A stretch of 39,672 nt of DNA, from the NCBI GenBank assembly GCA_041483295.1, contig JBGPFL010000001.1, positions 1 through 39,672 of the forward strand, in the 5' to 3' direction. Every line of letters starts with the position of its first letter. The stretch's first letter is position 1. Source of the DNA: Blastocatellia bacterium (GTDB taxonomy: Bacteria; Acidobacteriota; Blastocatellia; UBA7656). Positions 6,891-30,038 of this stretch are shown here, piece by piece. A model generated the notes under the pieces. That model saw only the letters and a program-made list of their open reading frames with translations, was not told the origin of the DNA and did not search any database. Made by a program: the position numbers and the translations under genes.

Positions 6891-6918
6891 GAGCTCAACT
6901 GAGCACGGGGCGGCGCGG

Positions 6919-8611: not shown

Positions 8612-8631
8612 CAGTTCAAGGAGGGTTGGCA

Positions 8632-10246: not shown

Positions 10247-10275
10247 CAGCTCCGGGGCTGAATGATGGAGGATAG

Positions 10276-11028: not shown

Positions 11029-11060
11029 AGGCTGTGGAGGGCTTGCAGGTTAAGACCATA

Positions 11061-12113
11061 TCACCCGCCGGCTATGTCAATGCGCCCGACCTCCCGGACT
11101 CTATTGGCCCACTGATGTTTCCATCTGTGAATCTGTAACAGGTCGACCTCATCGAGTCTCATTTCGTAAGCAAGCTTGATCGCCGCGTGAATAAAAAGTC
11201 TCCCAGGCGACCAGCGTTCAGCTTCGGGAAGGAACCCCCCGTTCCAGGCGCAAAGACTGTTAGCGCCGACCATATAGAGGTCTATACCTATGGTCTTCTC
11301 GCCCTCGAGTAGCGCGAATACTCGAACCTTGCGCTCTTTGAACAGCTTCGGCAGCGCCGTTATAATAAACGACCTCTGCGGTCCTCGCTGGAAGCAACTC
11401 TTATCGCCGAACCGGCTGAAGTGCAGGGATAGGAAAAGATCGGCGAGATGCTCTGAAGGAAAGATTTGTGGCTCGAGTTCTCGCACAAAGACGTCGCCGG
11501 CTTCTGCCAGCCGCTGTGCTCTCTTTATGCCCTTCCTGAATTTCTGTCTCCTCGTCATCAAGTACTGGTCGTAGCATGGTGGAAGATACATGTACGCATA
11601 CTGCATATCAAAGGAGAGCTTGAGATCGTATGCGCCGTCCAGACCCTCGCTCGCCCTCGCCAGGTTCGAGTCGCTTCGAACTCGGGTGAGTGCAAGTCTC
11701 CCGCTGCCCGTTACACTGGCCGCGGCATGCTTCAACAGGTTTATAAGGACACGGGGATCGTCCGGCGCAGCGATCATGTCTTGATAATCGCTCATGTTGT
11801 GCGGGAAACCGATCTCGTGCCCACCGTCCCTCAATACGAGAGGAAGTATTCCTACGAGGTTGGCACCGCGCCGGGCCGTGAACACCCAGGGCGAAATACC
11901 GGGAGAGGCATCGCAGGTTGCGAGAAACCAGGTCGAAGAACTGAATGCTCGATTGCACAGAGTGCGCTCAAGGAGCGAATCCCATTCTGTTGAAAGGGCC
12001 CCGATATCCGGTATTTCTTTGAGGAGACTGCAGATGATCAGGTTTTGATCGCGGGGTTCGCTTCGAGCCAGTGGCTGTTGCCGCATCACGGTATCGGGAG
12101 TTATTGTTCGCAC
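11061..12113 (-). CDS. CelD/BcsL-like GNAT acyltransferase (FemAB-like, Acetyltransf_6 type)
   Basis: 350 aa with the typical N-terminus for this family (WDSLLERTLCNRAFSSSTWFLATCD) and a C-terminal GNAT-like region (GIDLYMVGANSLCAWNGGF). Confidence 0.7.
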   Translation of the reverse strand: MRTITPDTVMRQQPLARSEPRDQNLIICSLLKEIPDIGALSTEWDSLLERTLCNRAFSSSTWFLATCDASPGISPWVFTARRGANLVGILPLVLRDGGHEIGFPHNMSDYQDMIAAPDDPRVLINLLKHAAASVTGSGRLALTRVRSDSNLARASEGLDGAYDLKLSFDMQYAYMYLPPCYDQYLMTRRQKFRKGIKRAQRLAEAGDVFVRELEPQIFPSEHLADLFLSLHFSRFGDKSCFQRGPQRSFIITALPKLFKERKVRVFALLEGEKTIGIDLYMVGANSLCAWNGGFLPEAERWSPGRLFIHAAIKLAYEMRLDEVDLLQIHRWKHQWANRVREVGRIDIAGG

Positions 12114-12281
12114 AACAGACGCAGCTCAAATTGACCGGGTCAGTCTGACTTCAGCGGGAACTTCAGCGCTATTCTATGTAATCGAATCTACGATCACAAG
12201 CGGCGTGTGTGGTATCCTCCAAGGCTTACAAAACACCGACGAAAGGACGGCAAGGGTTGGTTACTTGGCCGGAGCCGAAAA

Positions 12282-13034
12282 ATGATATTGTCCGAAGCCG
12301 ACAGACCGAACCCCGGCACGAACGAGGCTATCCAGGGATTATGGATTGGCCCCGAGCTCTCCTTAATGGAACAACTCTCTATTCGCTCGTTCCTAATGAA
12401 CGGGCACGAGTATCGTTTGTACGTTTACGATGATGTGAAACACGTGCCGGATGGCACGATTCTCAAGGATGCCAACGAAATTCTGCCTGCTTCAATGATC
12501 TTTCAGTACCGGCACCGCAAATCATATGCGGGGTTTGCGAACTTCTTCCGCTATAAGTTGCTGCTCGAGAAAGGCGGTTGGTGGGCGGACTCCGATCTCA
12601 TCTGCCACAGACGATTTGATTTCCGGCAACAGTACGTCTTTGCTACTGAAAAACGGCACGATGATGAGGTGATAACCTGTGGCGCGATTAGAGCCCCGGC
12701 CGGCAGCGAAATCATGGCTTATGCCTGGCATATCTGCAGTAATAAAAACCCGGACGAATTGACGTGGGGAGAGACTGGATCGAGGCTGATGGTCGAAGCC
12801 GTCGAGAAGTTCTCGCTGGAAGAATATGTGACGCCACACCAGGTGTTCTGCCCCTTACCCAACTGGCAGTGGAATGATGTTTTGAATCCGGATATCGAGT
12901 TGGGGTTTGATGGAGTCACCTATGCTATTCACTTGTGGAACGAGATGTGGAGGAAGGCGAGCCAGGACAAGAATCAAGCGTATCATCGGGACTGCCTATA
13001 CGAGCGATTGAAGCGACGGTTCTTGCTTTCATAG
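12282..13034 (+). CDS. GT32-like glycosyltransferase (Gly_transf_sug DXD family, Och1/alpha-1,4-Gal-T-like)
   Basis: IQGLWIGPELSLMEQLSIRSF, FANFFRYKLLLEKGGWWADSDLIC (DxD context). ATG 12282 follows GGAG. The ORF is open from 12207. Confidence 0.75.
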   Translation: MILSEADRPNPGTNEAIQGLWIGPELSLMEQLSIRSFLMNGHEYRLYVYDDVKHVPDGTILKDANEILPASMIFQYRHRKSYAGFANFFRYKLLLEKGGWWADSDLICHRRFDFRQQYVFATEKRHDDEVITCGAIRAPAGSEIMAYAWHICSNKNPDELTWGETGSRLMVEAVEKFSLEEYVTPHQVFCPLPNWQWNDVLNPDIELGFDGVTYAIHLWNEMWRKASQDKNQAYHRDCLYERLKRRFLLS

Positions 13035-15196
13035 AGAAATGAGTACCGCGCGAGAAGCTCCGCGTATTCTTCTACCGTGTGCAGGTGCTCCTCAATGGAA
13101 GCCTTCTTATATCCTTCATTGCCAAGGAAGGTTGCAGCCTCTTGCTTCCATGCAGCGATCGCAGAAGGGTTAGTTCTCGCCTTGATATAGCAGGCGACGA
13201 TGGTATCCCAATCGCGGGACCTCTTGGAAATTGACGCCGGGAACATTTCCTGGAGGGTTCGATTGTTGGCAAGCTCATCTTGGGCCTTCCGGTATGCCGT
13301 TTCCATCGCTCCGCAAAAGCAGTTCTGTCCCTGCCCTATGAGACGTTCTCCAACCCGGTAGATCCGCTCGAGACAGTGCCATTCGCTTTTGGCAGTGTCA
13401 GTCTTGCGCATCGTACCTCGGATGAACCTCTCATCGCTGCTCATGGCTCTCATGGCGACTCTAGGGTGGAAGTCTGCGCGATCGCTTCCGATAAGGAACA
13501 GATTGTCGTGGTCCATAAATATCAGCTTCACTTTCCATTCGCCGTCACTCCAGTAACTCTTCAGTCCAACGTTCCTGTCGACAAACGACTCGCCAAAAGA
13601 ATAGCCTCTTAGAGCGAGCAGGGTACCCCAGAATGCTCCAACCTGCGCCATCGCAGAAAGATAATTGTGATCGGCCCGGGCGCGGTTCTCAGGCACCGAG
13701 AGGCAGTCCTCTATATATCGCTCATAAGTTCGGTACCGGGCTCGCGGCGGCAATAACAGGCCTAGAACTTCGTCCAGCAGATCGTCCGCAAGCCGCTTCG
13801 CATCCAGTGGCGTGCAATCGACCCCCAGTCCCTCTTTGAAGTATTTCTCTGGTCCGTCGCCCGAAAGGTATGTGGCAAGACGTTCCAGGCGAAAGGAGGT
13901 TGAACCGGTAAGGACCGCCTGACAAGGAGTGGCGTAAGTGAGAAACTCGACTATGAGTGCCAACCGAGTAGATAGGTCGAGAGGCTTTCTGTCGGCATCT
14001 CTACTGAAGTCATCGACCGCCTTCTTGAGCTCCGCCTGCATTTCACGAAACCCACCACCGAAGACCTCGGGTCTGGTGAAGTAATCGAATATGTGGGCAT
14101 CGCCCTTTCTGGATGGAACCGTGTATACGGAGGACAGGGTGATAACCCTTGGCACCGAAGCTTCTCTTCCATGAATGAGCCGATAGATCCACGAAACTGA
14201 ATTCGATTGGGTTGCCTCCCATCTCAAATGGCGGCTCAGACTTCCCCCGTCGAGGCGGTGATGGGTTGGAACCGTCACGCCGTTACGCTGAAAGACAATT
14301 GTCAGGGGACCCGCCGATCTGCGCCCAACCCTCTTGATTTGAAACTCGATGTCGCTTCCGGGTGGTTTCACGACCAGCACCACCGTTCCGATCGGATACT
14401 CAACCAGTGAATTTATTTCGGAGCTGGTCGATTCTGAGACCCAGTAGATCCGGGAGTTCTCGCAAAGCATCCTCAGTATCGCCGCTTCGTAATCGGGCAA
14501 ATCCGAGAGTGCTGTCTTTGCCTCGTTTCTTACACAGGGATTTCGAAAGGGCTCAAAATCATCAAGGCCGCGCGAGATTCTCAGTTCTTTGAGTACTTGA
14601 GCTACGACCTCTTCGGGAGTGAAGAGATACCTTGCTAGAGATAGCTTACAATCCTGGCAGCTCAATCTTAGGAGATCTGTTAACGCGCTGGTTGTGGTGT
14701 TCTCTCCTTCAATTTGCGCGTGAACTCGGTTCAACCTCCGGAGCTTTCTCCTGAACTGCTTGACGAACTCCACGATCTTCGTCGTCGAATAGCCTTCTCT
14801 TAAGACTGAATCGTCAATTCTATGCTTCCGTCCTGCCGCGGATTTCAGTCTTAGTTGGACGAAAATGAAGTCGTGCTCAGCCAGATCTCTCCGGTCCAGC
14901 TTCAGAATCTGGTGCTCCAACATCAAGACGGCAAGCCTTCTGATCTCCCACGGCTCTCCGGATAGTCCCCTGGCCACTTCAAAGAGCTTCAGAATGAAGG
15001 TGCGGTTGTAAGCTCGATGCTGAAGAAACTCCCTGAGCAGAGCGCGAACACGGGAAGGATCTTCGAAGCCAGCCGTCAAAATGCGAAGCGAGCGGCCCGG
15101 CACTTTTGCGCGACGCGCCATACGATTGTCCCACGTGGCAGACCCCTCCAGCCCTCCCTTATTACCCGCAACCCAAGTCTTCCCGTTGTGGGGCAC
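12983..15196 (-). CDS. large hypothetical protein with atypical protein-kinase-like (AceK-like) motifs
   Basis: 737-aa ORF. An N-lobe-like TVVLVVKPPGSDIEFQIKRVGRR (nt 14318-14386) parallels AceK's LVFTLPGFDRVFKVIKDRF. A catalytic/Mg-loop-like GESFVDRNVGL...KVKLIFMDHDNL (nt 13499-13600) parallels AceK's GDMLFKNFGV...VVFYDYDEI. The AceK sequences are from memory. The GTG start at 15196 is uncertain (alternative ATG at 15121). Confidence refers to the CDS; the functional call is weaker. Confidence 0.6.
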   Translation of the reverse strand: MPHNGKTWVAGNKGGLEGSATWDNRMARRAKVPGRSLRILTAGFEDPSRVRALLREFLQHRAYNRTFILKLFEVARGLSGEPWEIRRLAVLMLEHQILKLDRRDLAEHDFIFVQLRLKSAAGRKHRIDDSVLREGYSTTKIVEFVKQFRRKLRRLNRVHAQIEGENTTTSALTDLLRLSCQDCKLSLARYLFTPEEVVAQVLKELRISRGLDDFEPFRNPCVRNEAKTALSDLPDYEAAILRMLCENSRIYWVSESTSSEINSLVEYPIGTVVLVVKPPGSDIEFQIKRVGRRSAGPLTIVFQRNGVTVPTHHRLDGGSLSRHLRWEATQSNSVSWIYRLIHGREASVPRVITLSSVYTVPSRKGDAHIFDYFTRPEVFGGGFREMQAELKKAVDDFSRDADRKPLDLSTRLALIVEFLTYATPCQAVLTGSTSFRLERLATYLSGDGPEKYFKEGLGVDCTPLDAKRLADDLLDEVLGLLLPPRARYRTYERYIEDCLSVPENRARADHNYLSAMAQVGAFWGTLLALRGYSFGESFVDRNVGLKSYWSDGEWKVKLIFMDHDNLFLIGSDRADFHPRVAMRAMSSDERFIRGTMRKTDTAKSEWHCLERIYRVGERLIGQGQNCFCGAMETAYRKAQDELANNRTLQEMFPASISKRSRDWDTIVACYIKARTNPSAIAAWKQEAATFLGNEGYKKASIEEHLHTVEEYAELLARYSFLYESKNRRFNRSYRQSR

Positions 15197-15683: not shown

Positions 15684-16595
15684 TTACAAGGGGACCGCCG
15701 AGTCTGCCGAGTCTACCTCCCGGTCGAACATAGCCGTCGAACACCCGTCAACGCAGGCGATCCAATCCCCCCGAACTGTTAAATGAGGATCGGCGTGATG
15801 CATCCCGGCGCTATTCCATCCATGGGCCGCACGGAAAAGAATAGGGCTCCGTGTGGTCTCTTCCTCACGATAGCTACACGTCGTCAATTCTGTTATTTCA
15901 AATGCCCTGAGCTGAGTGCCGTAGCGGGGATAACAATCCTGGGCAAACCGAATCAGCCTGCCTTCCCAATTCGTCATTCTGCCTCCAGGCCTCGCCCTCC
16001 TTCTATCGCCTTTTACTATTGGGCTCCGTGGGTGTTCATACCAGCGTCCCATCAAATCATCGGCGAAGTACAAGTTGAGGGTGTCGTGAGAGTAGTGCGC
16101 CGAACAGGTAAACATCCACCATCTGTGATCGAAATAAAAGATCGAGGGGTCCGCGTGTGTCCCTTCAATCAGTCTTCCGGCAAGCTCCCAATGCGCTGGG
16201 AAGTCTCTTGCCTTGTACAAACTTATGTAGTTCGCTCCGAGAGTCTCGGGAATCATGTAGTGATCGTCTTGCCACTTGAAAACGTTGGGATAGGATAGAT
16301 GGAAAGGCTCCTTGAGGACGATCTGCCGGTATTCCCAATGGAATCGGTCGGAACTGACCGCCAATCCGACCTCTCCCTTAGAGGTGGCTCTGTTCAGGGC
16401 CTCGAAAAACATGAACCACGTGCCGTGTTCCTCAACCATAAACGGGTCTGCCACAAACTCAGCCTCGATATCTGTCACGTCCCCGCAAGTAACTACGGGG
16501 TTCTCTATCGCCGGGTGAGGAGACAGTGAAAGAGGTGAATCACCAGTATAGATTCCTATTGCCCAAACGCGACGATCCTGGCTGACGGAAAACAT
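15684..16595 (-). CDS. five-bladed beta-propeller protein, GH43-like (the family often annotated as glucosamine inositolphosphorylceramide transferase family)
   Basis: FVADPFMVEEHGTWFMFFE, HLSYPNVFKWQDDHYMIPE, ADPSIFYFDHRWWMF, and repeated W/F-rich strand motifs. Motif-level call. Confidence 0.6.
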   Translation of the reverse strand: MFSVSQDRRVWAIGIYTGDSPLSLSPHPAIENPVVTCGDVTDIEAEFVADPFMVEEHGTWFMFFEALNRATSKGEVGLAVSSDRFHWEYRQIVLKEPFHLSYPNVFKWQDDHYMIPETLGANYISLYKARDFPAHWELAGRLIEGTHADPSIFYFDHRWWMFTCSAHYSHDTLNLYFADDLMGRWYEHPRSPIVKGDRRRARPGGRMTNWEGRLIRFAQDCYPRYGTQLRAFEITELTTCSYREEETTRSPILFRAAHGWNSAGMHHADPHLTVRGDWIACVDGCSTAMFDREVDSADSAVPL

Positions 16596-16721: not shown

Positions 16722-19700
16722 CTATTTCTTCTTACTCTTCTTGTTGCTCACTTCGGGTTTTGGTTTCTCCTCCGGGGGCGGGAAGAATCTCTCAAACCCG
16801 TTCCTGGTCGGCCGCGGAGCTACTCCTGGAGGCACGCCTGGCGGCAGGAGGCGCGGCGCCTTCAATGCCGCTGCTGCGGGGGTAGTGGTCGAAGGACACG
16901 CGAACGTCTTCTGGCCGGGAGGAAGGACTCTGAATATTCCCCATGCCCCATTGATGAATTCACCGCTCGCCGGATAACTCCTGTAGAGGTAATCCCCGGG
17001 AACGCTGAAACTGCCGCCAGCCTTGTCGATCAGAATATCGAAGTGATTGCCCGGCCCAAAACCATCGCGCGATCCCATCCATTGCGATAGAGGATTGAGG
17101 CCCAATCGCGCGCTGGCAGTAAACTGCGGGCAGGTCTCCGGATTATCACAACTGTCGACATAGGGCTCCTCTTGCCAGACGTGGCCGTGAATTGTCCAGA
17201 CGCTATCCGGGAATCCGCCCTTTCCGTCCGGGTGCAGCATACGGAACCTGACAGGTTTCCCCGCTTCGGCCGAGAAGATCGGCGTGTACGGATCACCCTT
17301 GCACTGGCCGGCAGGGGAAGTGCCGCTAAAGGCCAGTTGATTCAGATTGGAGAAACTCGTCGACAGGTCGACCATACTGTAGGAAGTCGTATTGAACCGC
17401 GGCGTGCCGTTGGGCTGGCTATTGTTATAGTTCATCGGTTCCGTACCGTAATTGACTGAAGCGAACCCACTCTTGAGGTTGCTCTGCAGGATCGTAGCGA
17501 ATTCGCGGAACGAGTTGCCGCCGTCATAGCTCACATCGACAGCCGCATCCGGAATTGGCGTTCCCGGAGCGGGGCCGCTGCAATTTGAGCTGTTTGCAGC
17601 GCTGCACCACCTCGAGGCTGGAGGTTCGATGATCAGTGCTCCGATGAGAGACCACGATGGTTGGTTGACAGGATCGGATGCCATCAAGTTGGCCGCGCCC
17701 AGCTCTGCCGGCGATCTCGTCACCGAACCATCCTGGTTGATCGTCACGTTGCCAGCGTACCACTTGTACGTAACCGAATTCGAGCAACCGGTCGTGCCCT
17801 TTGGACAGGCCGTATTCACCGGATTGAACCCGGTGTTGGCGCCGTTGCTCTGGGTGACATCAAACGAGGCGAGTTGAGGATGCAACCCGATCCATTGAGA
17901 CGGGCTGGTGTTGCCGACACCCTTGCCTGACAGCAGAGCCGGGTTGAGGTTGTTAAACAGAGTGACTTGTATGCACTCTCCGGCAGCCGCTCGTAGTATC
18001 AGTGGCGTTGTCGGAGGAAGCGGACCTTGTGGATTGCCACTCTGGTTCGACAATACATAGGCGACGGCGGAACCGGAGCTGCTGCCATTCGTCAGCGCCG
18101 TGGAGTTGCGGGTGTTGTAAGTTATCGTCAAGGGCGTGGTATCGGTCGGTAATCCCTTCTGAGTATTTATCGCTGCAACATAGTAAGTCCGCGGCGTCGC
18201 GCCTGCCGGGCAGGTCTGATCGGTGGTGATGACGGGTGCCTTCAGCGGATCGTTGTTCGGCAGCTCTTGCAGATCGCTGATCAACTGTCCTGCTCCGGCT
18301 ACGTTGTATGCTCGCAATATGCCCCAGATACCGTTGGTTTGAAGGTCCCTGGTGCCCTGCCCTGCAACATACTGATAGTCGCCGAAGAAGGTTCCCTGCG
18401 GAATCTGCTTGGCCGGAGGGGGAGCACTGAAGTAACCGGTCGTATCCGTCTTCTGACTGTAAGGAACTGTAAACAGCATCTCGAAGTGCTCCGAGATCCC
18501 CATTACCTGGTTATCGCGCCACCCCGAGGTGCTGTTGGACGGCTCAAAAAGCCACTTGATACCCTGCATCCCAAAGCTATGTTGAAAGAGGTGCGCGCCT
18601 ACCAACAAGCGGACCTGCACTTTGTCATTCTGGTACGCGCGAAGAAGCGGAGTGTAGGGATCGTAGCCCGTAGCGCCGGCGAACCCCCCAGGATAGACGA
18701 ACGGGCTACCCTGCGGGCAACCAGATTGGCTCGGCGGACATACTGGCTGACCAAGCGCAGGCTGGGCGTTTATGTTTGGTTGATTAACGCTACCGGCGGT
18801 CGTAGCGCGCTGAATCGAGCTGAACGCAAAGGACATGTCCGTTGCAAGCGTGTTCGGCCCCTGTGAGGTCACCCGTTGCATAAAACTGCTGGACGAGCTC
18901 CCAATCGGCTCGTTTCGATAATTCACGGCCGCTGTGCCAACACCCTGGTTGTTAGAGATGAGAGCCGGAGTCGGTTGTGATGGTGTGCTCGTCGTCCCCG
19001 TGCAACCCGCGCCAATCAGGTTGCCACCGTTATTGCTGCAATCAACCCATCCCCAAGGCGTCTGCAGCGTGGTTATGAAACGGGGAGCGTTCTGAGGATA
19101 GGGCGTTATCTTGGCAGCGCTGGTGTTCTTGTATGCGAGCGCGAGATCCTGAAGCATCAACGCGAATTCGCGATAACTGTCAGCCTGATTCGGCGACTTG
19201 ATAATAGCCTGCCAGCTCGTGGGGCCTCCGTCCACACGGTTGCCCAATGGGCTTCCATCAACGGCGTTTAACCAACCGGATCGTTCCGGCTCGACCAACA
19301 GACCAGCATATAGCCCCGCCTGTTGATGAGTAGACGGGCCGAAATGGTCGTGAGTGAATACGCTTCGCAGAGTGCGATCGTCCTTTTGCCTGCCGAAACA
19401 ACCCTCGGCGCCATTAGGACAGCCTTCTAAAGGATCTGGATACCAGCGTTGTATGGTGGTTTGAGCGCCGAACCAGTCATCGTGGCACTTATTCGACCCT
19501 GAAGTACCGCATATGAGTGACGGCGGCGGTTGAGGGTCTCGCAGAGGCGGACAGGTCGGACAGGATCTCCAGGAACCGTTTCTGATCGCGAAAATCCGGT
19601 TGCGAACTTCGTCCGGGCTTAATGTGCCATCCTCGTAATTAAAACCGTTGGATGCCCCGTCCGAAGCCAGGACATCGAACTTTACGAGGTGAATATGCTG

Positions 19701-22700
19701 GCCGAGGATATCGGTCGGAGTTCGCACCTGAAAATTATCCAACTCGTAATAGTCGGGGACCAGGTTTGTGTGCCAGAACTCGATGATATCCTCTTTACTA
19801 TTCGCTCGGAAGAGAAACGGCTCCACCTGCTTCAGGTTGTTCATTGTCGGCATCACATCTTGCCAGAGCAATTCAAACCGTTGCTGCGGGTAATGGGACC
19901 CGACTTTACTGAAAGCTACGTCTTTCTCCACGACAGCCGCCTTGTAGCGCCGGATATTGGTACCCACAGGTATCGACTGACTATACTTCCCGTCTTCTAC
20001 CGCGGGATCGGCATAGGGCGCCCCCAACTGCGACCCGTACTGATTCTCTGCGTGAAATCCTTGACTCGGTTTCCTGGGCAAGCCGTTAGTCAAGAAAAAG
20101 CACGGTTGACCCGGAGGAACCTGGGTACAATCCACTCCCTTCGGCGTGATGGTCCCCTGTATCCTCCCCCCCATATACCGCATCGCGACGAGTTCGGTCT
20201 GCGTCCCTCCCTCGGGAAGCTGGAGAGCTAGGAGAGCACCCTTCCTGGTGGTCCTGTCGTAGGTGTCTTTCGTGAAATCCCAGTGAGTGTGGCGCTCGAT
20301 CACCACGTCGCCGTTCAAGACCAGGTGTCTGGGCAAGCCCCCATCATAGTAGACCTTATTGGCGTAGGAATCCGTTTCATAGGCGAAATCCAGCGGCGGA
20401 TGCGGGGCCCGATGGCCGGCTATTCCCGGAATAAAGAAAGGAAAGCCTGGGTTCAAATTCTTTGCTATGTCATCTTTGTTTACTACGGCGGCATATCCCA
20501 CCACCGGTTCTGGTTTTCTTACGCACTGATCGCCTACAAAGGAATCTATCCTCCAGTCGCTGTAGACCGGACAGATCTGGATCTTGGCTGGATCAGGTGC
20601 CATTGCAATGGTTGGAATCGGCACGATAGCCGGAATGGGTGTGCCCGCCGATATTTCGCCATCCGGCAGGACTCGATTGAAACCCGGCTGCGGTGTGAGA
20701 CCGTCACTCTGCAATGCCGTTCCCTCTTCGAAAACATCGTGGACTCGCCACAATGCCCACATGCCGGCGGCAAAGTGCGGATAGAAATGGCAGTGGAAGA
20801 TGGAATCTCCCGCGGTCTTATTGCGGTTCCCGCTACCGTCGTAGACCATCTCAAGAGTGAAGGCAGCGCCGGGACTGATCATCTGGCTGTCGAGATAACT
20901 GCTGTTCGTATTGTCCGGTGTATGCAGCCACTGATGCGCGTGCTGGTGATGCACGTGGCTTATCCCGCCACCTGCATTCAGTATCTGAAATTTCATGTGG
21001 TCGTTCAGGTAGCTGTGGTAAACATTAGACGGATCGTCCGGATAAAATGCCACCTGTGCTTTGGCCCCTGGCTGCGGTTCGTTCGGCCATACCGGGTTCT
21101 TGCCAGTTGTTTGTACACAAGCGAGCTGTTTAATCACATCTGATGGTACCTCTTGATTAGGTTTGTCCGGCTGAAAGTACAGGTTCACGGCAACGCCGCT
21201 GTTGTGGGCAGTAGCGGTCGAACAGTCGGCCGCGCGCAAGACGCTTACAGTGCCGATCTGGTTCCCGCTCACCCCAACGTATTGGATGAATTCGTCGTCG
21301 ATTCTTACGATGCCGCTTGAAGGGAACCCAACGCTGCTCTGAATCATGATCGGGGTGACACTGCTGGAGGTGATATTTTGAGAGAGGCCTGTTTGAGCTC
21401 TGATGGGAGTGTTAGCCGGTCTATCAACCGCCATGGCGGGGTCCCCAGAAGACCACGCGGTTAGGAAAAACTCCTCGAACTTGCATTCGACGCAGTTAGT
21501 CATCGGGCCGACCTTGATTCGATTCGCAAGGATTTCGGAACCAATTCCTCCCGTCCCATAGTTGATTGAGAATCCATCCACGCCTGCGGACATGACTGAG
21601 GAGAGGTTAGCCACGAACAGGTTCACCGTCACCTTCGCATTGTGAGCCGCGCTCGTGGACCCGTCCACTCCACGTTGAACCACGGCAGTCCCGAGGCTCG
21701 CACTGTTCTTCCCTTCGTACCAGATGTATTCGCTATCGATGAATAGGGTGCCGGCTAAAGGGAATGCCGCCGTGTTGCTAACCGGAATCGGAGTGGTGCT
21801 CGTCTGGCTGATACTTGCGGTCAAGGTAGTCGAGGTCTGCTGTGGCGGAGCATAGTACTCGCGGAACGCCTGCACGGCTGTCGGCACCTCATGATAGATC
21901 ACCGTCACTTCGCGCCATGGCTGCGTGCGATCAGGCGAAGCGGATACGGGAACGAATTGCGGAGGCGGATTCTTCGGATCTACCTTGAACACATCGGCAT
22001 TCGGCCCGGTGATAATGGCGGTCAGATCGGTGTGATAGAGCTGAAGTCTCGGATCCTTGAACGGGTCAGCCTTGCATCTCCCATTTCCCTTCTCATCGTA
22101 CTCGATGCGCTGTACGTCAACCATCTTGAGAATTGGGGCGCCGCACGAACGATTGGGCTGCTTGGGATCATATTGGCCATCCGTGGGATAGCGGGCACTG
22201 TAGTTTACTTTCCTCCTGCCGGACTGAATGGTGGAGGCGCGCATCAAATCATCGCGGGTAACCTGACTGCGGTAGTACTCTGCGGTTGCAGGTTGCACGT
22301 TCACCGCTCCGAACATTCCAGTTGAAATTTGGCCGGCATCACCAGGCCCGGTACTGCCGAGAGGAGCGCCCTGGCTGTAGAGCAAGAACGTTCCGACCTC
22401 GGCGCCATAGAGCAAGTACGTCTTGGTCTTGCCAATGTCGACGAGAGATCCTCTTTCTGTGAACAGGTTCACCAACTGGCCGCTTGGATGCGCCGCGGGA
22501 GTGGATCCCTGGACGCCGCGCGTGATGCCAGTAAACTGACTACCGCTTAATGCTGTGTATTGAATGTACTCCTCGTCGATTCTGATTACCCCGCCGGTTG
22601 TCGGGAACCCGGCGATATTTGACACCGCGATCGGACTGGTACTGGTAGCGTTGATGCCCGCGGTCAATCCAGGGGGCTGCGGCGGTGGTTGAGGCTGAGC

Positions 22701-23258
22701 CGTCATACCGTTGGTGCCGACCCAGGACCCGTCGTCCTCCGGGCCCTTGGCCCACTGCATTCCGTTTGCGTGCAGGGAGACTTCTCTTGTCAGCGGCGAC
22801 AGCGCCTGAAATCTTGCATCGGGAGTCAGAAGGTTGATCAGGTTCACCTGCAAACATTGCCCTTTGTTCACCCGTAACACGATCGGCCGGGGACGCTTAT
22901 CGGACCGCAGCCTTACCTTTCCCGGTTGCATGGCGGTGCTGGAGTCCGTTGAGATGACGTCTTGCCGAAGCGCAAAGACCGTACCCTGCGGGTAGGCCGC
23001 CCCGAGGCGGTTAAGCATGAATGGCTGATCAAGCGCCACGACATCACTGACGACGGTGTTCGTATTGTCACATTTCGGAGAAGCGGCTTGAACGGAGGCA
23101 GCTTCTTGAGCGGCTGGAAAAGAGCCAGCTCCGGGAGGAGAACCCGGAATCGCGCCGCGTAGACTCGTCGTTTGGGCATGTGCCGCGACGACGAGAATGA
23201 GAACAACCAACCCAGAACCGAACCACATCAGCCTGTGAATACGCTTGCGAGTTTTCAT
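16722..23258 (-). CDS. giant secreted multicopper-oxidase-like protein (2178 aa; MnxG/MofA-class size)
   Basis: Sec-type signal (MKTRKRIHRLMWFGSGLVVLILVVAAHA/QT) and an SD GGGAGAGG 7 nt upstream. An L3-like HVHHQHAH lies at nt 20922-20957. A canonical L4 HCHFYPHFAAGMW lies at nt 20757-20795; I verified this by reverse translation. Paralogous downstream units carry GQHIHLVKFDV (19674-19703), FTHDHFGPSTHQQAGL (19311-19358), GLHPQLASFDV and TIHGHVW (17163-17195). Confidence 0.9.
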   Translation of the reverse strand: MKTRKRIHRLMWFGSGLVVLILVVAAHAQTTSLRGAIPGSPPGAGSFPAAQEAASVQAASPKCDNTNTVVSDVVALDQPFMLNRLGAAYPQGTVFALRQDVISTDSSTAMQPGKVRLRSDKRPRPIVLRVNKGQCLQVNLINLLTPDARFQALSPLTREVSLHANGMQWAKGPEDDGSWVGTNGMTAQPQPPPQPPGLTAGINATSTSPIAVSNIAGFPTTGGVIRIDEEYIQYTALSGSQFTGITRGVQGSTPAAHPSGQLVNLFTERGSLVDIGKTKTYLLYGAEVGTFLLYSQGAPLGSTGPGDAGQISTGMFGAVNVQPATAEYYRSQVTRDDLMRASTIQSGRRKVNYSARYPTDGQYDPKQPNRSCGAPILKMVDVQRIEYDEKGNGRCKADPFKDPRLQLYHTDLTAIITGPNADVFKVDPKNPPPQFVPVSASPDRTQPWREVTVIYHEVPTAVQAFREYYAPPQQTSTTLTASISQTSTTPIPVSNTAAFPLAGTLFIDSEYIWYEGKNSASLGTAVVQRGVDGSTSAAHNAKVTVNLFVANLSSVMSAGVDGFSINYGTGGIGSEILANRIKVGPMTNCVECKFEEFFLTAWSSGDPAMAVDRPANTPIRAQTGLSQNITSSSVTPIMIQSSVGFPSSGIVRIDDEFIQYVGVSGNQIGTVSVLRAADCSTATAHNSGVAVNLYFQPDKPNQEVPSDVIKQLACVQTTGKNPVWPNEPQPGAKAQVAFYPDDPSNVYHSYLNDHMKFQILNAGGGISHVHHQHAHQWLHTPDNTNSSYLDSQMISPGAAFTLEMVYDGSGNRNKTAGDSIFHCHFYPHFAAGMWALWRVHDVFEEGTALQSDGLTPQPGFNRVLPDGEISAGTPIPAIVPIPTIAMAPDPAKIQICPVYSDWRIDSFVGDQCVRKPEPVVGYAAVVNKDDIAKNLNPGFPFFIPGIAGHRAPHPPLDFAYETDSYANKVYYDGGLPRHLVLNGDVVIERHTHWDFTKDTYDRTTRKGALLALQLPEGGTQTELVAMRYMGGRIQGTITPKGVDCTQVPPGQPCFFLTNGLPRKPSQGFHAENQYGSQLGAPYADPAVEDGKYSQSIPVGTNIRRYKAAVVEKDVAFSKVGSHYPQQRFELLWQDVMPTMNNLKQVEPFLFRANSKEDIIEFWHTNLVPDYYELDNFQVRTPTDILGQHIHLVKFDVLASDGASNGFNYEDGTLSPDEVRNRIFAIRNGSWRSCPTCPPLRDPQPPPSLICGTSGSNKCHDDWFGAQTTIQRWYPDPLEGCPNGAEGCFGRQKDDRTLRSVFTHDHFGPSTHQQAGLYAGLLVEPERSGWLNAVDGSPLGNRVDGGPTSWQAIIKSPNQADSYREFALMLQDLALAYKNTSAAKITPYPQNAPRFITTLQTPWGWVDCSNNGGNLIGAGCTGTTSTPSQPTPALISNNQGVGTAAVNYRNEPIGSSSSSFMQRVTSQGPNTLATDMSFAFSSIQRATTAGSVNQPNINAQPALGQPVCPPSQSGCPQGSPFVYPGGFAGATGYDPYTPLLRAYQNDKVQVRLLVGAHLFQHSFGMQGIKWLFEPSNSTSGWRDNQVMGISEHFEMLFTVPYSQKTDTTGYFSAPPPAKQIPQGTFFGDYQYVAGQGTRDLQTNGIWGILRAYNVAGAGQLISDLQELPNNDPLKAPVITTDQTCPAGATPRTYYVAAINTQKGLPTDTTPLTITYNTRNSTALTNGSSSGSAVAYVLSNQSGNPQGPLPPTTPLILRAAAGECIQVTLFNNLNPALLSGKGVGNTSPSQWIGLHPQLASFDVTQSNGANTGFNPVNTACPKGTTGCSNSVTYKWYAGNVTINQDGSVTRSPAELGAANLMASDPVNQPSWSLIGALIIEPPASRWCSAANSSNCSGPAPGTPIPDAAVDVSYDGGNSFREFATILQSNLKSGFASVNYGTEPMNYNNSQPNGTPRFNTTSYSMVDLSTSFSNLNQLAFSGTSPAGQCKGDPYTPIFSAEAGKPVRFRMLHPDGKGGFPDSVWTIHGHVWQEEPYVDSCDNPETCPQFTASARLGLNPLSQWMGSRDGFGPGNHFDILIDKAGGSFSVPGDYLYRSYPASGEFINGAWGIFRVLPPGQKTFACPSTTTPAAAALKAPRLLPPGVPPGVAPRPTRNGFERFFPPPEEKPKPEVSNKKSKKK

Positions 23259-23614: not shown

Positions 23615-24517
23615 ATGACGTTTGAACACGGAACAAAGATCGAAATCGATCAGGAGCTTTTGGGAAAGCACGCGCGCAACTACAATTGCTCTCTTTTGAA
23701 ATACCGCGATCGCATTCTGTTTGCATACAGGCAGGACATTGGTCCAAGTCCCACCTCGAGGATATGCCTGTGTCTGTTGAATGATGAATTTCAGCCGCTA
23801 CCCGGCACACATAGGGTTCTAACGCCGAAAATTTGCGACTTACCGCTCCAGAGAATCAACGATCCGCGCCTGTTTATCTGCGGAGGGCTCGTCTATTGTA
23901 CCTACACCGCGGTTTACACAGACAAAACCGGTAACGGCCTCAGCACTCGTAACGGCCTCAGCACCCTGGATCCATATACGCTTTCACCCATTTCCGACTG
24001 CTTGGTTAGTTGGACGGGTTGCCGTAGGAAAGAGAAGAATTGGCAGTTCTTCGATTTTGAAGGCCAGATGTACTGCGTCTATTCCATAACGCCGCACGTT
24101 GTTCTGCGAGTCGGCGCCGACGGTGTCTGCCATCTTGCGGGATCCAGCGAACCCGAGATCCACTGGAAATGGGGAGAGATGCGCGGAGGCACCCCGCCCA
24201 TCCTGGTTAGAGACCGATACTATTCCTTCTTTCATAGTTCTTTTCAAGACCGGGCATTGTTACGCTACGTTATGGGTTGCTATTCTTTCGAAGCCAAGCC
24301 ACCATTCAAGATTACGTCTGTGTCGAGAGTTCCCTTACTCCGTCCGGGCATCAAAGACCGGCCGTCGACGTGTCATCCAGAGCTTGCCGTAGTCTACCCC
24401 TGCGGAAGCTGGCTTCTTGGAAGCCATTGGCTTGTGTCATACGGCTATCACGATTCTTTCTGCCGAATAATCGGACTGCACCACGACAGGATCCTAAGCA
24501 ACATGGCAGAGATTTAA
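23615..24517 (+). CDS. GH130/DUF377-like beta-propeller protein (glycoside phosphorylase/hydrolase-like)
   Basis: EKNWQFFDFEGQMYCVYSITP parallels the DKNxxLFPxxxxGKYxxxxRP block of GH130-type propellers as I recall it. Repeated strand motifs are present. Weak call. Confidence 0.45.
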   Translation: MTFEHGTKIEIDQELLGKHARNYNCSLLKYRDRILFAYRQDIGPSPTSRICLCLLNDEFQPLPGTHRVLTPKICDLPLQRINDPRLFICGGLVYCTYTAVYTDKTGNGLSTRNGLSTLDPYTLSPISDCLVSWTGCRRKEKNWQFFDFEGQMYCVYSITPHVVLRVGADGVCHLAGSSEPEIHWKWGEMRGGTPPILVRDRYYSFFHSSFQDRALLRYVMGCYSFEAKPPFKITSVSRVPLLRPGIKDRPSTCHPELAVVYPCGSWLLGSHWLVSYGYHDSFCRIIGLHHDRILSNMAEI

Positions 24518-24544: not shown

Positions 24545-26548
24545 ATGAAAGGGTCTCGTTCCAATCTGTTGCTTCCCCCTTCGAAGGACCGCCGTAGTTC
24601 CTTCCGGGTCCTCTTTGCGGGCTTCGCCTTCTTCTTTCTTGCAGTTCAATCGCCGCCAGCCGCACCGCTGCGGGCCGGGCAAGCCGGGAGAGACTCAGGT
24701 AAGAGCGCCTTCGAGGGTCAAAGGGGACCAGGAGAGAAAGTGGTCTACCAGGGAATCGAGGTCGGCTTCGAAATCGAACATGTCGATACAGAGGAAAAGA
24801 AGAAGAAGGGCTCTTTTGTCGAGGGTGAGGACGTCGCGGTCCGATTTACGATCACCGATGCGCGCTCAAAGGCACCGTTGACCGGCAGTGCTCCGCTTGC
24901 GTGGATGGATCCCGTGGGTCAGATTCCTTTGGCAGACTGCGCTAAGAAGGTGGCGGGCTTCGTCAACGGGGGGCTCCTATCGAGGCCGGCGATCGATCTA
25001 AACGCCTACTATGTCCTCGCTCTAAACGAAGACTCGACCATCTCCGTCGTAGACCCACATTTTGAGTTTGGCGGCACGAAGTTGCTTGCCCTGGTGGCTC
25101 TCGATAGTCAGGGTGACGACTGGAGGCTTACATCCGATCAATCGAGACTATTCGTTTCGATGCCGGATTCAAACGCTGTTGCGGTTGTGGACACCACAAC
25201 CTGGAAGAAAATAGCCGGCATCGCTCTAGGCCGCAGACCGACCCGTCTTGCAATCCAACCGGATCAACATTATTTGTGGGTGGCCTATGGCGACCCAAAG
25301 ACGAAGGAGGATTCAGGCGTAATCGCCATAAGCGCTAAGGGACTGGTGGTGTCGGCGCGAATACCGACCGGAAGCGGCCCGCACGAACTTGCCTTTAGTA
25401 ATGATAATCGTTTCGTATTCGTCACCAACGGTCAGGAAGGAACGGTCTCTGTAATTGATGTGCGAAGCCTGAAAAAGATAAAAGACCTCAAGACGGGTCG
25501 ACAGCCAACTTCGATCGCCTTTTCAAGTCTCAGCAAGCTGACCTATGTCGTAGATGAGAGCGATGGAACAATCGTCGCGATCGACAGCGTTAAGCATCAG
25601 ATTGTCGCAACCAGGCAAGTTCAACCAGGACTTTGCCAAATAAGATTCGCTCCCGGCGAGCTCCATGGTTTCGTGACCAATCCGCGAAAGAACGTCGTTT
25701 ACGTAGTCGACGCGTCCAACAACCAGGTGGTTCAATCGGTGGACATACCGGATGAGCCTGACCAGATCACTTTCTCCAGTGCTTTCGCCTACGTACGGCG
25801 GCGAGGCAGCGAGACGGTGCTCTTGATTCCACTGGACCTGATAGGAAAAACGGACAAACCGATTTCAATGATGGATTTTCCTGCCGGACAGAGACCTCTT
25901 GGCAAGGTGTCCAAACCAAGCCCGGCAGAGAGCATAGTCCAGGCGCCCGACAACAAGGCGGTTCTAGTGGCCAATCCCGCAGACAAAACCATCTACTACT
26001 ATATGGAGGGCATGGCGGCTCCTAAGGGAAGCTTCGGCAACTACAGCCGAGAACCGAGAGCCGTGCTGGTAGTGGAACGTAGCTTTAAGGAGAAGTCTCC
26101 CGGCGTCTATGAAACAACGGCAAGACTGGCTCAGCCAGGGATGCACTACGTCGCGTTCTTCCTGGATTCTCCTCGAATTACACATTGCTTTCGCGTTTGG
26201 ATCGATCCGGACCCGGCGAAGTTACAGCAGAGAGAAGCACCGATTAATGTCGAACCGTTAATCGAACGTCGAGTCCTTCGCGTCGGCGAGACGGCTCGCC
26301 TGCGTTTCAGGCTTACCAACGTCAGGACTGGCGCGCCCAGGACGGGACTGGACGATGTTCGCGCACTTACGTTCCTCGCCCCCGGAACCTGGCATCAACG
26401 GTTCCCCGCAAAGGAAATAGGCGATGGCGTTTATGAAATTGAGTTCGCCCCGCCACAATCCGGGGTCTACTACGTCTACTTGGAATCGGCATCGGCGGGA
26501 CTCAAGGTCAACAATCCCCAATACGTGGTGCTTGAAGCCACCAACTAG
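24545..26548 (+). CDS. secreted YVTN-family beta-propeller repeat protein with flanking FixH/Ig-like domains
   Basis: AGGAG upstream and an N-terminal hydrophobic signal. YVTN-type repeats are present (TGSGPHELAFSNDNRFVFVTNGQEGTVSVIDV, TGRQPTSIAFS...YVVDESDGTIVAID, FVTNPRKNVVYVVD). The N- and C-terminal beta-sandwich-like segments are FixH/YtkA-like. Confidence 0.8.
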   Translation: MKGSRSNLLLPPSKDRRSSFRVLFAGFAFFFLAVQSPPAAPLRAGQAGRDSGKSAFEGQRGPGEKVVYQGIEVGFEIEHVDTEEKKKKGSFVEGEDVAVRFTITDARSKAPLTGSAPLAWMDPVGQIPLADCAKKVAGFVNGGLLSRPAIDLNAYYVLALNEDSTISVVDPHFEFGGTKLLALVALDSQGDDWRLTSDQSRLFVSMPDSNAVAVVDTTTWKKIAGIALGRRPTRLAIQPDQHYLWVAYGDPKTKEDSGVIAISAKGLVVSARIPTGSGPHELAFSNDNRFVFVTNGQEGTVSVIDVRSLKKIKDLKTGRQPTSIAFSSLSKLTYVVDESDGTIVAIDSVKHQIVATRQVQPGLCQIRFAPGELHGFVTNPRKNVVYVVDASNNQVVQSVDIPDEPDQITFSSAFAYVRRRGSETVLLIPLDLIGKTDKPISMMDFPAGQRPLGKVSKPSPAESIVQAPDNKAVLVANPADKTIYYYMEGMAAPKGSFGNYSREPRAVLVVERSFKEKSPGVYETTARLAQPGMHYVAFFLDSPRITHCFRVWIDPDPAKLQQREAPINVEPLIERRVLRVGETARLRFRLTNVRTGAPRTGLDDVRALTFLAPGTWHQRFPAKEIGDGVYEIEFAPPQSGVYYVYLESASAGLKVNNPQYVVLEATN

Positions 26549-27614: not shown

Positions 27615-28175
27615 ATGAAGAAGGTTGGTTTCGTTCTGGGAGTCGTTCTACTCCTCTGCGTCTCTCACGCACTTGGAGGGGACATCAAGGGCAAGGCAGG
27701 CGGAAAGCCAGGAGCCGCAGTTGTCGTATGGGTCGAAGGCATTAGGAGATTTCAGGTTCCGCACAACCGACCGAGCATCTCGCAGATGGGCACCAAGTTC
27801 TCGCCGGCCCTCCTGGTAGTCGTCGTCGGACAGACTGTCGAGATGCCTAATGACGACAATGTGGCGCACAACATCTTCTCTTATTCGCCGGCTAAGCAGT
27901 TCAACCTCGGAATCTACCCAAAAGGCGAGTCCCGCACGGTGACCTTTACAAAACCGGGTGTGGTCGATCTGTTCTGCTCAATTCACCGCCGCATGAACGG
28001 AAAGCTCATCGTAGTGCCCAATCCATACTTCAACCAGACTAGCGGCGGCGATTCATACCGGATCGCTTCGGTTCCTGCTGGCAGGTATGTTGTGAAGATG
28101 TGGACCGAGGGGCTGGGTGAGCTGTCCAAGGTTGTCACCGTTCCGGCCAAGGGAGAAGTAACGCTGGACTTTTAG
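27615..28175 (+). CDS. cupredoxin-like protein fused to a carboxypeptidase-regulatory-like domain
   Basis: Signal peptide; possible type-1-Cu-like ligand set (AHNIF ... FCSIHRRMNG, i.e. H...C-x2-H-x2-M); a C-terminal YRIASVPAGRYVVKMW beta-sandwich. AGGAG lies 7 nt upstream. Confidence 0.65.
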   Translation: MKKVGFVLGVVLLLCVSHALGGDIKGKAGGKPGAAVVVWVEGIRRFQVPHNRPSISQMGTKFSPALLVVVVGQTVEMPNDDNVAHNIFSYSPAKQFNLGIYPKGESRTVTFTKPGVVDLFCSIHRRMNGKLIVVPNPYFNQTSGGDSYRIASVPAGRYVVKMWTEGLGELSKVVTVPAKGEVTLDF

Positions 28176-28332
28176 TTGTTATTCAAACCTAACACATCTG
28201 ATTTGCATTCTGTGAGATGTTAGCGCACTTGCATGCCGCGCTCTAGGCACTGGATATCCAAGGGCTCAGCCCTTAGCCTCGGCAGTAACTGCAAGCAGTG
28301 CGCAGTCCGAACCAAAAGGAAGGGTACGACCA

Positions 28333-29442
28333 ATGCCATACGAGACAAATAGAAACGCGCAGAAACAGATACTGGCCGTTTCGGCATTTACGATATTGAT
28401 AGCCATAGCGATGGTGAGCGGCCCCGCGTTAGGTGCGCGTGGTGACGCGCGCGATCTGCCTCATCCGCCCGGGAATGCCATCACGACAAAGATCCTCGAC
28501 GGGATGAGAGTCTTGCCGGGCGACCTTGCGCCGTTGCCGCCGCTCGGGGTGAGCAGCGCGCAGGAGCAGGCACAAATCGAGCTGGGCAAGATGCTCTTCT
28601 TCGACAGCCGGCTGTCACGCGACCGCTCGATGAGCTGCGCGACCTGTCACGATCCTGCGAAAGGATTCGGCGATGGCCGCGCGCTTGCCGTCGGATTCGG
28701 CGGAAAGGTGCTTGCCCGCCATTCTCCAACCGTGCTCAACGCAGCTTACAACTCGTCTCAGTTCTGGGACGGACGCGCGGCTAGTCTGGAGGAGCAGGCA
28801 GCCGGCCCGATTATGGCGGCCGCCGAGATGAACATGGCCAGCGAACAAGATGTGGTGGCGCGGCTCAACCTGGCGTCGGCTTACACCGAGCGCTTCCGCG
28901 CCACATTCGGCGAAGCTCCGAACCTGAAGAACATCGCGAAGTCTATCGCTTCATTCGAGCGTACGCTAGTGACGCCGGATTCGCGCTTTGATCGCTATCT
29001 CAGTGGCGACAAGTCCGCTTTGACCGAGCAAGAAAAGCGCGGGTTGATACTGTTCATCGGCAAGGCCTCGTGTTCCGCCTGCCACAACGGGAACAACCTG
29101 GCCGACAGTAAGTTTCACGTGCTCGGCAGCACGCCAAACCAGAAAGAGGATGTCGGCCGTTATGCCGTTAGCAAAGACGAGAAAGACCGCGGCGCCTTCA
29201 AGACACCCACGCTGCGCAACGTCGAGCTTACCGCACCCTACACACACAACGGCGTGCTCAAGAGTCTCGATGAAGTCATCGAGTTCTATAACGAAGGCGG
29301 AGGCGAGGCTAGGAACAAGTCTGACTTGATTTTGAAGCTTGAGCTGACAAAGCAGGAGAAGGCCGACCTGATCGCTTTCCTGAAGTCGCTTACCGGCAGA
29401 CAGCCGCAGGTTGAGATACCGCAGCTCCCGAGCGACAACTGA
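28333..29442 (+). CDS. di-heme cytochrome c peroxidase (CCP/MauG family)
   Basis: Two CxxCH motifs (CATCH at nt 28636-28650; CSACH further on), GKMLFFDSRLS, FWDGRA, FKTPTLRNV...PYTHNG. Confidence 0.9.
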   Translation: MPYETNRNAQKQILAVSAFTILIAIAMVSGPALGARGDARDLPHPPGNAITTKILDGMRVLPGDLAPLPPLGVSSAQEQAQIELGKMLFFDSRLSRDRSMSCATCHDPAKGFGDGRALAVGFGGKVLARHSPTVLNAAYNSSQFWDGRAASLEEQAAGPIMAAAEMNMASEQDVVARLNLASAYTERFRATFGEAPNLKNIAKSIASFERTLVTPDSRFDRYLSGDKSALTEQEKRGLILFIGKASCSACHNGNNLADSKFHVLGSTPNQKEDVGRYAVSKDEKDRGAFKTPTLRNVELTAPYTHNGVLKSLDEVIEFYNEGGGEARNKSDLILKLELTKQEKADLIAFLKSLTGRQPQVEIPQLPSDN

Positions 29443-29516
29443 AAGCCTAGGGTTCAGCTCTTCGGGTTACTACATCGTGAATCGGCGAGCTGAGACTGAA
29501 CAGAAAGGGGGAAGGA

Positions 29517-30038
29517 ATGATTTCAGACACCAGGAGCAGAACCGCTCGACTTGTTCAAGCTGCAGCGATTCTGTCCGTACTGCTTGTTGCGGCCTTTGCG
29601 CAGACTCACGCGCGGGTGAAGCGGTCTGCCCCGCCTTCGAAAGAGTTCGCGAGCCTCTCTCAACTGATGAAGGATGGAATTCACGAGCAATTTACCCTTC
29701 TCTCGTTCACGATCTGGCACGACAGCCCCATGACTGAAGAGAAGTTGAATTCAGTAGCAAGGTCAGCATCCCACCTCCAGGAGCTTGCCGTGCGCATCCC
29801 GGCCTTCAAAACAAGTTACTTCCGTAAGTACCCCGGAGAGGACCTGGCGCTGGTCGACGCAGACTCTGCTGAAATGGAAACCCTCGCCCGCTCAATCTCT
29901 CGAGCGGCCGCCAATGGAGATGAAAAGAGTCTTGAGCCGCTCCTCACCCAGCTCGAGGCCAACTGCAACAGCTGTCACTTAAAGTTCAGACAGGAGCTGT
30001 CCAGCCAGTATGTGGAGCCGACTCAATTTAAGAAATAA
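29517..30038 (+). CDS. cytochrome c'-like (class II, four-helix-bundle) heme protein
   Basis: Signal peptide, a predicted helical body, and a single C-terminal [11 protein letters not shown], matching the class II CxxCHxx[FY]R placement. Confidence 0.65.

Follow-up and report, generated by a model that had tools for sequence, protein, structure and literature searches.

A giant MnxG-like multicopper oxidase of a Blastocatellia bacterium with three phage-fibre-type modules in its front end

Few natural oxidants and sorbents in soil are stronger than manganese oxides, and the bacterial manganese oxidases known so far derive from Bacillus and a small number of cultured Proteobacteria. Mn(II) oxidation has biochemical support for the Bacillus Mnx enzyme and genetic support for MnxG of Pseudomonas putida (10.1101/2022.11.10.515945), whose mnxG operon in strain GB-1 is described (PMC8218464) as encoding an ABC-type protein, a beta-propeller of the lactonase family, and proteins of the SCO and SurA-N types. 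Here, we analyzed a contig of 39,672 nucleotides from a Blastocatellia bacterium of the Acidobacteriota (JBGPFL010000001.1, assembly GCA_041483295.1; this whole stretch is called the window), which harbors a giant gene for a predicted multicopper oxidase (MCO) of 2178 amino acids (aa). The best overall explanation, to which we assign a probability of roughly 0.6, is an exported MCO of the MnxG superfamily that belongs to the Pseudomonas-MnxG-like branch, most probably acts on Mn(II) and is equipped with modules that may serve in docking. Neither the class of the enzyme nor its likely chemistry is new, and current understanding is not overturned; the unusual part is the occurrence of three phage-fibre-type modules in the front end of an MnxG-like oxidase.

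An exported oxidase of the MnxG superfamily

The gene (6537 nt) occupies positions 16722-23258 on the minus strand, which also applies to all positions within it given below, and its open reading frame (ORF) is free of interruptions. The ATG is the earliest possible start downstream of an in-frame stop and has a Shine-Dalgarno-like GGAGAGG a few bases 5' of it; base composition is uniform along the gene, and scans for sigma-70 promoters and terminators remained at background level. Read by eye, the N-terminus MKTRKRIHRLMWFGSGLVVLILVVAAHA, followed by QT, has the tripartite build (n-, h- and c-regions) typical of Sec-type signal peptides (aa 1-28; 23175-23258), with predicted cleavage between AHA and Q and with equivalent A-x-A ends before Q in homologues; a twin arginine and a lipobox cysteine are both absent from this region. 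The uninterrupted 6.5-kb frame and the Sec signal, both claimed in a preliminary description made from the sequence alone, are thus borne out.

The encoded protein is virtually certain to be an MCO of the MnxG family. Along its length it matches NCBIfam model NF041487 (copper_ox_MnxG, the manganese-oxidizing MCO MnxG of Pseudomonas type, with a curated equivalog cutoff of 3100 bits) at 940 bits and E 2.4e-282. MnxG of Bacillus, PDB entry 9bxa, aligns in order along the protein over six domains (E 6.5e-64), and a family profile of 50 sequences matches the same entry with E 1.2e-138 in ordered segments across 9bxa residues 6-1210; three separate regions of this profile are matched by two-domain laccases. 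An AlphaFold2 (AF2) model of aa 61-860, covering domains 1 and 2, has a confident core and a predicted template modelling score (pTM) of 0.72. Its top fold match in the PDB is 9bxa_A, with MCOs, copper nitrite reductases and two-domain laccases ranking next, so that the comparison of a structure model with MnxG, which the preliminary description had proposed as a check, came out with cupredoxin folds present.

Out of 8000 candidates scored, 1219 are homologues at E<=1e-5, several of which are named 'manganese oxidase' by JGI and NCBI. The median homologue has 1878 aa. At least 582 confirmed stretches reside in species-representative genomes of many phyla, with carriers among Acidobacteriota, Alpha- and Gammaproteobacteria, Undibacterium, Bacteroidota, Planctomycetota, Nitrospirota, Myxococcales and Ca. 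Methanoperedens, and the closest genome loci are those of Terriglobia and Ca. Angelobacter, at 46-48% identity, which by itself points to a probable acidobacterial host. In the light of this family, the early proposal of a metal-oxidase candidate survives as far as a secreted multi-domain MCO related to MnxG is concerned (NF041487, 9bxa), but not as an orphan architecture: the size, the layout and the basic tail, held to be unlike those of characterised members, agree with the median homologue, the Pseudomonas-type plan and the common DPxERF tail, respectively.

A homologue of 1692 aa, 41% identical, is encoded on a contig of the archaeal methanotroph Ca. Methanoperedens nitroreducens ANME-2d (locus L058, 9845-14920). 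Its HCH, HIH and HDH motifs are intact and a beta-propeller gene adjoins it. The Methanoperedens lineage is associated with metal-oxide reduction.

The copper-binding motifs are found in domains 2 and 3. Domain 2 carries L3, HVHHQHAH at aa 768-775 (20934-20957), which aligns to HVFHYHVH of 9bxa and in which H768, H770, H771 and H773 are invariant, and L4, HCHFYPHFAAGM at aa 822-833 (20760-20795), which reads H822-C823-H824-FYP-H828-FAAG-M833 and extends as HCHFYPHFAAGMW to aa 834. Domain 3 carries L1, H1188-I-H1190 (19689-19697), and L2, H1303-D-H1305 (19344-19352) in the context FTHDHF (aa 1301-1306), which align to HIH and HDH of 9bxa, respectively. All ten histidines and the one cysteine of the ligand set in these four motifs, as well as M833, are invariant among 50 aligned homologues. 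They are assigned to a type-1 copper site (His768, Cys823, His828 and Met833) and to a trinuclear cluster, in which His771/773 and the type-3 pair His822/824 of L4 are complemented by His1188/1190 and His1303/1305. H828 corresponds to residue 340 of 9bxa, which is mutated in that entry (H340A). L4, L1 and L2 were found in the Undibacterium, Aquimarina, Angelobacter and Methanoperedens homologues, and the L3 pattern in three of these four (Undibacterium, Aquimarina and Angelobacter). The copper sites are very probably competent for catalysis.

Since HCH occurs only once in the 2178-aa protein, the protein should hold a single type-1 copper and, where domains 2 and 3 meet, a single trinuclear cluster. 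From the collinearity with Bacillus MnxG, the protein is predicted to comprise six cupredoxin domains, and domains 1, 4, 5 and 6 keep the fold signatures and lack the cysteine ligand. A signature typical of odd-numbered domains recurs three times: as VSLHANGMQWAKGPEDDGSWVGTN at aa 160-183 in domain 1 (22710-22781), which is devoid of copper ligands and aligns to 9bxa residues ~70-100; as GQHIHLVKFDVLASDGASNGFN at aa 1185, which supplies the HxH (L1) of the trinuclear cluster; and as GLHPQLASFDVTQSNGANTGFN at aa 1790 in domain 5 (17823-17891), where, by alignment to 9bxa, the HxH is degenerate. The preliminary description had recognized the L3/L4 pair with its HCH motif and the paralogous units at aa 1185 and 1790, and these stand; it had overlooked the third copy as well as the L1/L2 role.

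Two further elements are shared with the family. Between two of the modules described below lies a conserved block, aa 559-612 (21423-21584), of the form FSINYGTGGIG...CVECKFEEFFL...GDPAM, with invariant or near-invariant columns in the 50 homologues, its CxxC being near-invariant. CxxCKFEEFF also occurs in the Undibacterium and Angelobacter homologues; this exact pattern was not found in those of Aquimarina and Methanoperedens, and the block is missing from the segments aligned to 9bxa. The CxxC could form a disulfide or an extra metal site. At the other end of the protein, the C-terminal tail (aa 2135-2178; 16725-16856) is Pro-rich and then Lys-rich, as had been noted before, with PPGVPPGV just ahead of an ERF motif (aa 2156-2158) and the terminal sequence ...PPGVPPGVAPRPTRNGFERFFPPPEEKPKPEVSNKKSKKK. 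Most of the 40 homologue C-termini inspected (P0002-P0040) show an ERF/DRF-type motif, in the majority of cases DPxERF, ahead of a low-complexity tail of basic or hydrophilic character; this arrangement could serve as a sorting or anchoring signal or as a propeptide.

Three inserted modules

The protein exceeds the median homologue by ~300 residues, of which ~230 are accounted for by three modules of ~70 aa with their linkers. R1 (aa 197-267; 22458-22670) is preceded by the Pro-rich linker MTAQPQPPPQPP; R2 (aa 478-549; 21612-21827) and R3 (aa 624-695; 21174-21389) lie on either side of the conserved block. Segments specific to this protein correspond approximately to modules and linkers only; the modules interrupt variable stretches of domains 1-2. 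The repeats escaped a self-BLAST of the full protein and became evident when segments were used as queries, with pairwise blastp E-values of ~1e-16. Their consensus is TLxxxIxxxxTTIxVxSTxGFPxxGxxxIDxExIxYTGxxxTxFTGxxRGxxGTTAAxHxxGxxV, and a module hidden Markov model (HMM) scores them at 101 (R1), 115 (R2) and 116 bits (R3), a broader profile at 69-84 bits. In an alignment of 68 module sequences, one glutamate and one arginine are invariant and one histidine nearly so. Inserted modules had been hinted at in the preliminary description; their presence is confirmed, as three copies of one repeat of phage-fibre type.

Pfam and NCBIfam yielded no family for R1-R3. Canonical module copies of other proteins show faint, sub-threshold similarity to PF23666 (Rcc01698_C) and PF24149 (K1-lyase Rider domain), with E-values of 0.005-0.025. 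In PHROG, all three modules match families of tail-fibre, baseplate-wedge and virion proteins (4406, 2885, 1101, 11439 and 9851), with best-match E-values from 6e-8 to ~1e-3. The AF2 model obtained from the 68-sequence alignment is a small all-beta barrel with a predicted local distance difference test (pLDDT) score of 94.8, and its comparison with the predicted viral protein structures of BFVD returned 41 matches at E<=1e-3, with template modelling (TM) scores of 0.8-0.89 and a root-mean-square deviation of ~1-2 A, named tail fibres included. Foldseek matches in the PDB are weak and comprise phage capsid and baseplate chains, then the N-terminal barrel of F1-ATPase. A narrow profile of six module sequences found no match among PDB sequences; the broad profile matched 8vjh, a minor tail protein of a phage (E 1.4e-5), as well as tip attachment protein J of JBD30.

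By exhaustive HMMER search, 4560 cluster representatives bear the module at E<=1e-3, which supersedes an earlier word-indexed search with a 72-residue module profile that had returned two fragments only. Carriers usually contain 2-24 copies at widely varying positions and are often giant proteins of up to 7980 aa; those sampled also contain Kelch, LVIVD, prophage-tail and Big_9/cadherin domains. The module is thus a large uncurated domain family common to phage tail fibres and cellular surface giants.

Among MnxG-like oxidases, modules are rare. Within the best 120 homologues they occur only in P0002, P0003 and P0006, each with one copy at the R2 site, and R1 was not seen in any of the other 49 aligned homologues. 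The only other sequence with three modules is the JGI metagenome fragment P0283, which is 80% identical over aa 81-803 and has all of them in the same places; two read-level fragments agree with this layout, and R3 is conserved in the fragments P0283 and P0121. The three-module architecture is therefore real and has been retained. The contig of P0283 (JGI sample 3300041967, 2622 nt) has a gene call that runs from the equivalent of aa 81 to ~aa 798, ends in an altered ...ISPGAGRQRE and is followed by another ORF, which, for that assembly, points to frameshift errors or to disruption of the copy.

R1-R3 are 40-50% identical to each other, which roughly equals their distance to modules of unrelated proteins. 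No DNA-level repeats link them and their GC content at third codon positions (GC3) lies within the range of the remaining gene, without compositional anomaly, from which we conclude that the modules are old; a recent duplication or transfer was rejected on the same grounds. In a neighbor-joining (NJ) tree, our protein groups with P0002 in 30/30 bootstraps, and P0003 and P0006 are placed elsewhere among module-free sequences, hence either the R2 stretch was hit twice or the module was lost repeatedly. The R2-site module, which follows AVQAFxxFYxPP, thus occurs in two NJ clades that do not group, P0003/P0006/L030 and P0001/P0002.

The modules might be a neutral decoration, that is, a promiscuous self-folding mobile domain tolerated in permissive surface loops. 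This would fit with their lack in 116 of the 120 best matches, in 79 of 80 genome loci and in all of 120 partial homologues that a word-indexed search with aa 61-860 returned when three-module relatives were sought, and the use of the R2 site in two clades is what a permissive loop predicts. The widely varying positions among carriers point the same way, as does the copy in P0003/P0006, in which the ID.E motif and the conserved histidine are lost. However, in the lineage of our protein the three copies are kept at 68-73% identity to their orthologues in P0283, on a background of 80% overall; each exceeds 100 bits against the module profile, their GC3 marks them as old, and three copies in one enzyme are more than a single accident. 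Altogether, we consider neutrality rather unlikely.

Gene neighborhood and proposed function

Conservation of the neighboring genes was assessed at 80 related MnxG-like loci by homologue search including tblastn. Divergently oriented from the oxidase gene is a gene for a YncE/lactonase-type beta-propeller of 667 aa (24545-26548, plus strand; Pfam and NCBIfam matches), which is found at 55 of these loci. On the other side, a GINT1_N-like protein (15684-16595, minus strand; PF24793, E 2e-60) is encoded directly downstream of the oxidase, in the same position as in locus L001, and recurs at nine loci. It is followed by a conserved neighbor of 737 aa (12983-15196, minus strand) for which no Pfam, NCBIfam or PDB match was obtained, and which is present at 34 loci, including those of Gammaproteobacteria, with a median identity of 44%. 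An accessory set at 2252-13034, identified by Pfam and tblastn, comprises a small 165-aa protein, two luciferase-like monooxygenases, a methyltransferase, dioxygenases of the 2-oxoglutarate (2OG)/TauD/PhyH type, an MptE-like protein, a GNAT protein and a GT32-like glycosyltransferase. Across the related loci, SCO1/SenC is encoded beside 54, a fusion of periplasmic-binding protein and cytochrome c beside 43, PhyH beside 29, the methyltransferase and the small 165-aa protein beside 22 each, luciferase-like proteins beside 19 and a glycosyltransferase beside 11. This tailoring block, which recurs in several phyla (L001, L003, L004, L008-L018, L025, L045 and L046), may be involved in making a glycan or matrix, or in modification of the oxidase. 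MnxE or MnxF annotations were absent from the scanned neighbors; a search aimed at these subunits was not made.

The oxidase gene is flanked by two genes for proteins resembling glycoside phosphorylases/hydrolases of the five-bladed-propeller type, one GH130-like (23615-24517, plus strand), the other the GINT1_N-like protein, and of the two only the latter recurs in related loci. A row of plus-strand genes at 27615-33721 encodes a small cupredoxin, a di-haem cytochrome c peroxidase/MauG-like protein, a cytochrome c', a hybrid histidine kinase (HAMP-HisKA-HATPase-2xREC-Hpt) and a single-domain response regulator. The cupredoxin, the peroxidase, the cytochrome c' and the kinase were rejected as partners of the oxidase, none of them being found at any of the 80 loci, and the row is probably a separate unit. 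At the left contig end (308-1991), the 5' end of a minus-strand gene for an Xre-like antitoxin (Xre_MbcA_ParS_C) shares 11 bases with a divergent gene of the Fic/DOC family.

Several observations weigh against an MnxG-like manganese oxidase with working modules. The protein does not reach the NF041487 equivalog cutoff, and neither do five relatives, from Undibacterium, Ca. Angelobacter and Aquimarina as well as P0002 and P0006, which score 1040-1170 bits; all tested non-Pseudomonas relatives being below it, the whole branch is to be called MnxG-like and not equivalog. With scores this far below 3100 bits, the Mn(II) assignment is a homology transfer over a large distance, and within the branch activity data are confined to Pseudomonas. 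Neither SCO1 nor the fusion of periplasmic-binding protein and cytochrome c has a homologue on the 39.7-kb contig. Most homologues are devoid of modules, and the modules themselves are poorly placed (pLDDT <50) in the 800-aa AF2 model. Finally, a Pfam scan for Cu-oxidase domains, named in the preliminary description as a test that could refute it, was formally negative: none of PF00394, PF07731 and PF07732 was matched at its gathering threshold, the sole match of the whole protein being PF07731 with 18.3 bits, below the cutoff of 20.4. Some homologues have a precomputed PF07732 match, and we read the miss as a failure of Pfam sensitivity on a divergent family, which is no argument against cupredoxin domains.

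The distance from the characterised enzymes leaves room for a functional MnxG-family MCO that acts on another substrate, be it Fe(II), Cu(I) or organic matter of phenolic, humic or polymeric nature, the label 'manganese oxidase' having been carried over from Pseudomonas and Bacillus. Besides the scores below the equivalog cutoff, the promiscuity of MCOs speaks for this view, CueO and CotA oxidizing Mn(II) in vitro with a high Michaelis constant (Km) (10.1101/2022.11.10.515945). Likewise, we found no paper linking Acidobacteria, manganese oxidase and MnxG, the Acidobacteriota literature being limited to the pipeline annotation of a metagenome-assembled genome (MAG) (PMC13439051). Nevertheless, both experimentally studied members of the superfamily, MnxG of Bacillus and of P. 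putida, are manganese oxidases, the operon partners known from Pseudomonas are conserved with the branch, and the copper-site motifs hardly differ between phyla, an indication of conserved function. We thus hold another substrate to be fairly unlikely, and Mn(II), judged from these relationships, to be the somewhat favored physiological one.

That the ORF is an artefact, either an assembly chimera in which phage or adhesin sequence was joined to an oxidase gene, or a pseudogene in decay, as the metagenome-assembled contig, a module typical of phage proteins and the truncated gene call of P0283 might suggest, can be practically dismissed, as the frame is uninterrupted with all ligands intact, the modules are in frame between conserved oxidase sequence and share the gene's codon composition, the same three insertions occur in independent metagenome sequence, and none of 29 neighboring ORFs (>=150 aa, Pfam) contains a phage-type domain.

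Given an exported MnxG-like oxidase, the type-1 site would accept single electrons in succession from an extracytoplasmic reductant, for use by the trinuclear cluster in reducing O2 to water. Most probably, this reductant would be Mn(II) and then Mn(III), which would yield Mn(III,IV) oxide, and the oxidase probably acts with the conserved beta-propeller as a partner. No catalytic part is envisaged for the modules; tentatively, by analogy, they may be docking or adhesion devices that keep the oxidase attached to a surface structure or a partner, an idea put forward because such modules occur in phage receptor-binding proteins and because of the faint similarity to gpJ-type domains and to the N-terminal rider domains of tailspikes. 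It would be a long shot that they tie the oxidase to a cell-surface scaffold or glycan produced by the recurrent accessory genes, i.e. those for the 737-aa protein, the PhyH/TauD/2OG dioxygenases, the methyltransferase, the luciferase-like monooxygenases and the glycosyltransferases.

MnxG-like enzymes whose copper sites are intact thus occur widely, in Acidobacteriota as in many other phyla, along with a conserved set of partners, i.e. propeller, SCO1, periplasmic-binding-protein-cytochrome c fusion and tailoring block; the carriers are therefore candidates for environmental manganese oxidation. The insertion variant can be regarded as an experiment of nature on the extracellular positioning of such enzymes, and the module-bearing enzyme could serve as a handle for finding the module's ligand. 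If the modules indeed tie the oxidase to products of the accessory genes, soil Acidobacteriota would possess an organised extracellular apparatus for forming manganese oxide, and the module would be a general protein-to-surface adaptor, used by phage fibres and cellular enzymes alike.

Comparison with known systems

The closest described counterpart is MnxG of P. putida GB-1 (PputGB1_2447), likewise a giant (~1900 aa) exported MCO with the motif order L3, L4, L1, L2 and a propeller gene alongside. The Blastocatellia protein differs from it in scoring below the NF041487 cutoff and in its three modules, which split the N-terminal profile match. Its contig also differs from the P. putida operon in having neither the SCO nor the substrate-binding-protein partner. 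Matches to a sigma-54 consensus of the P. putida mnxG type were fewer than expected by chance, with none upstream of the oxidase gene.

MnxG of Bacillus sp. PL-12, on whose structure 9bxa no paper was found, is collinear with our protein. Both have the same copper ligand positions, with L3/L4 ahead of L1/L2, and share the signature xxHxxxxxxDxxxSDGxxxGxN. The Bacillus enzyme works with the subunits MnxE and MnxF. Our protein is almost 1000 residues longer, owing to family-specific insertions and the three modules; aa ~860-1100 and 1383-1526 align poorly or not at all with 9bxa, and the CxxC block is extra as well.

Ceruloplasmin-type oxidases resemble it in being built of two-domain units, three in tandem, whose odd and even domains are paralogous. 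In ceruloplasmin itself, type-1 sites occur in domains 2, 4 and 6, and the trinuclear cluster lies between domains 1 and 6. This layout was rejected for the Blastocatellia protein, which has a single HCH, a single Cys ligand and its cluster ligands in domains 2 and 3.

Finally, R1-R3 share consensus and predicted fold with the module of phage tail fibres, baseplate wedges and gpJ-like proteins. In contrast to the phage modules, they sit neither in a fibre nor in a giant repeat protein, but inside the loops of an enzyme.

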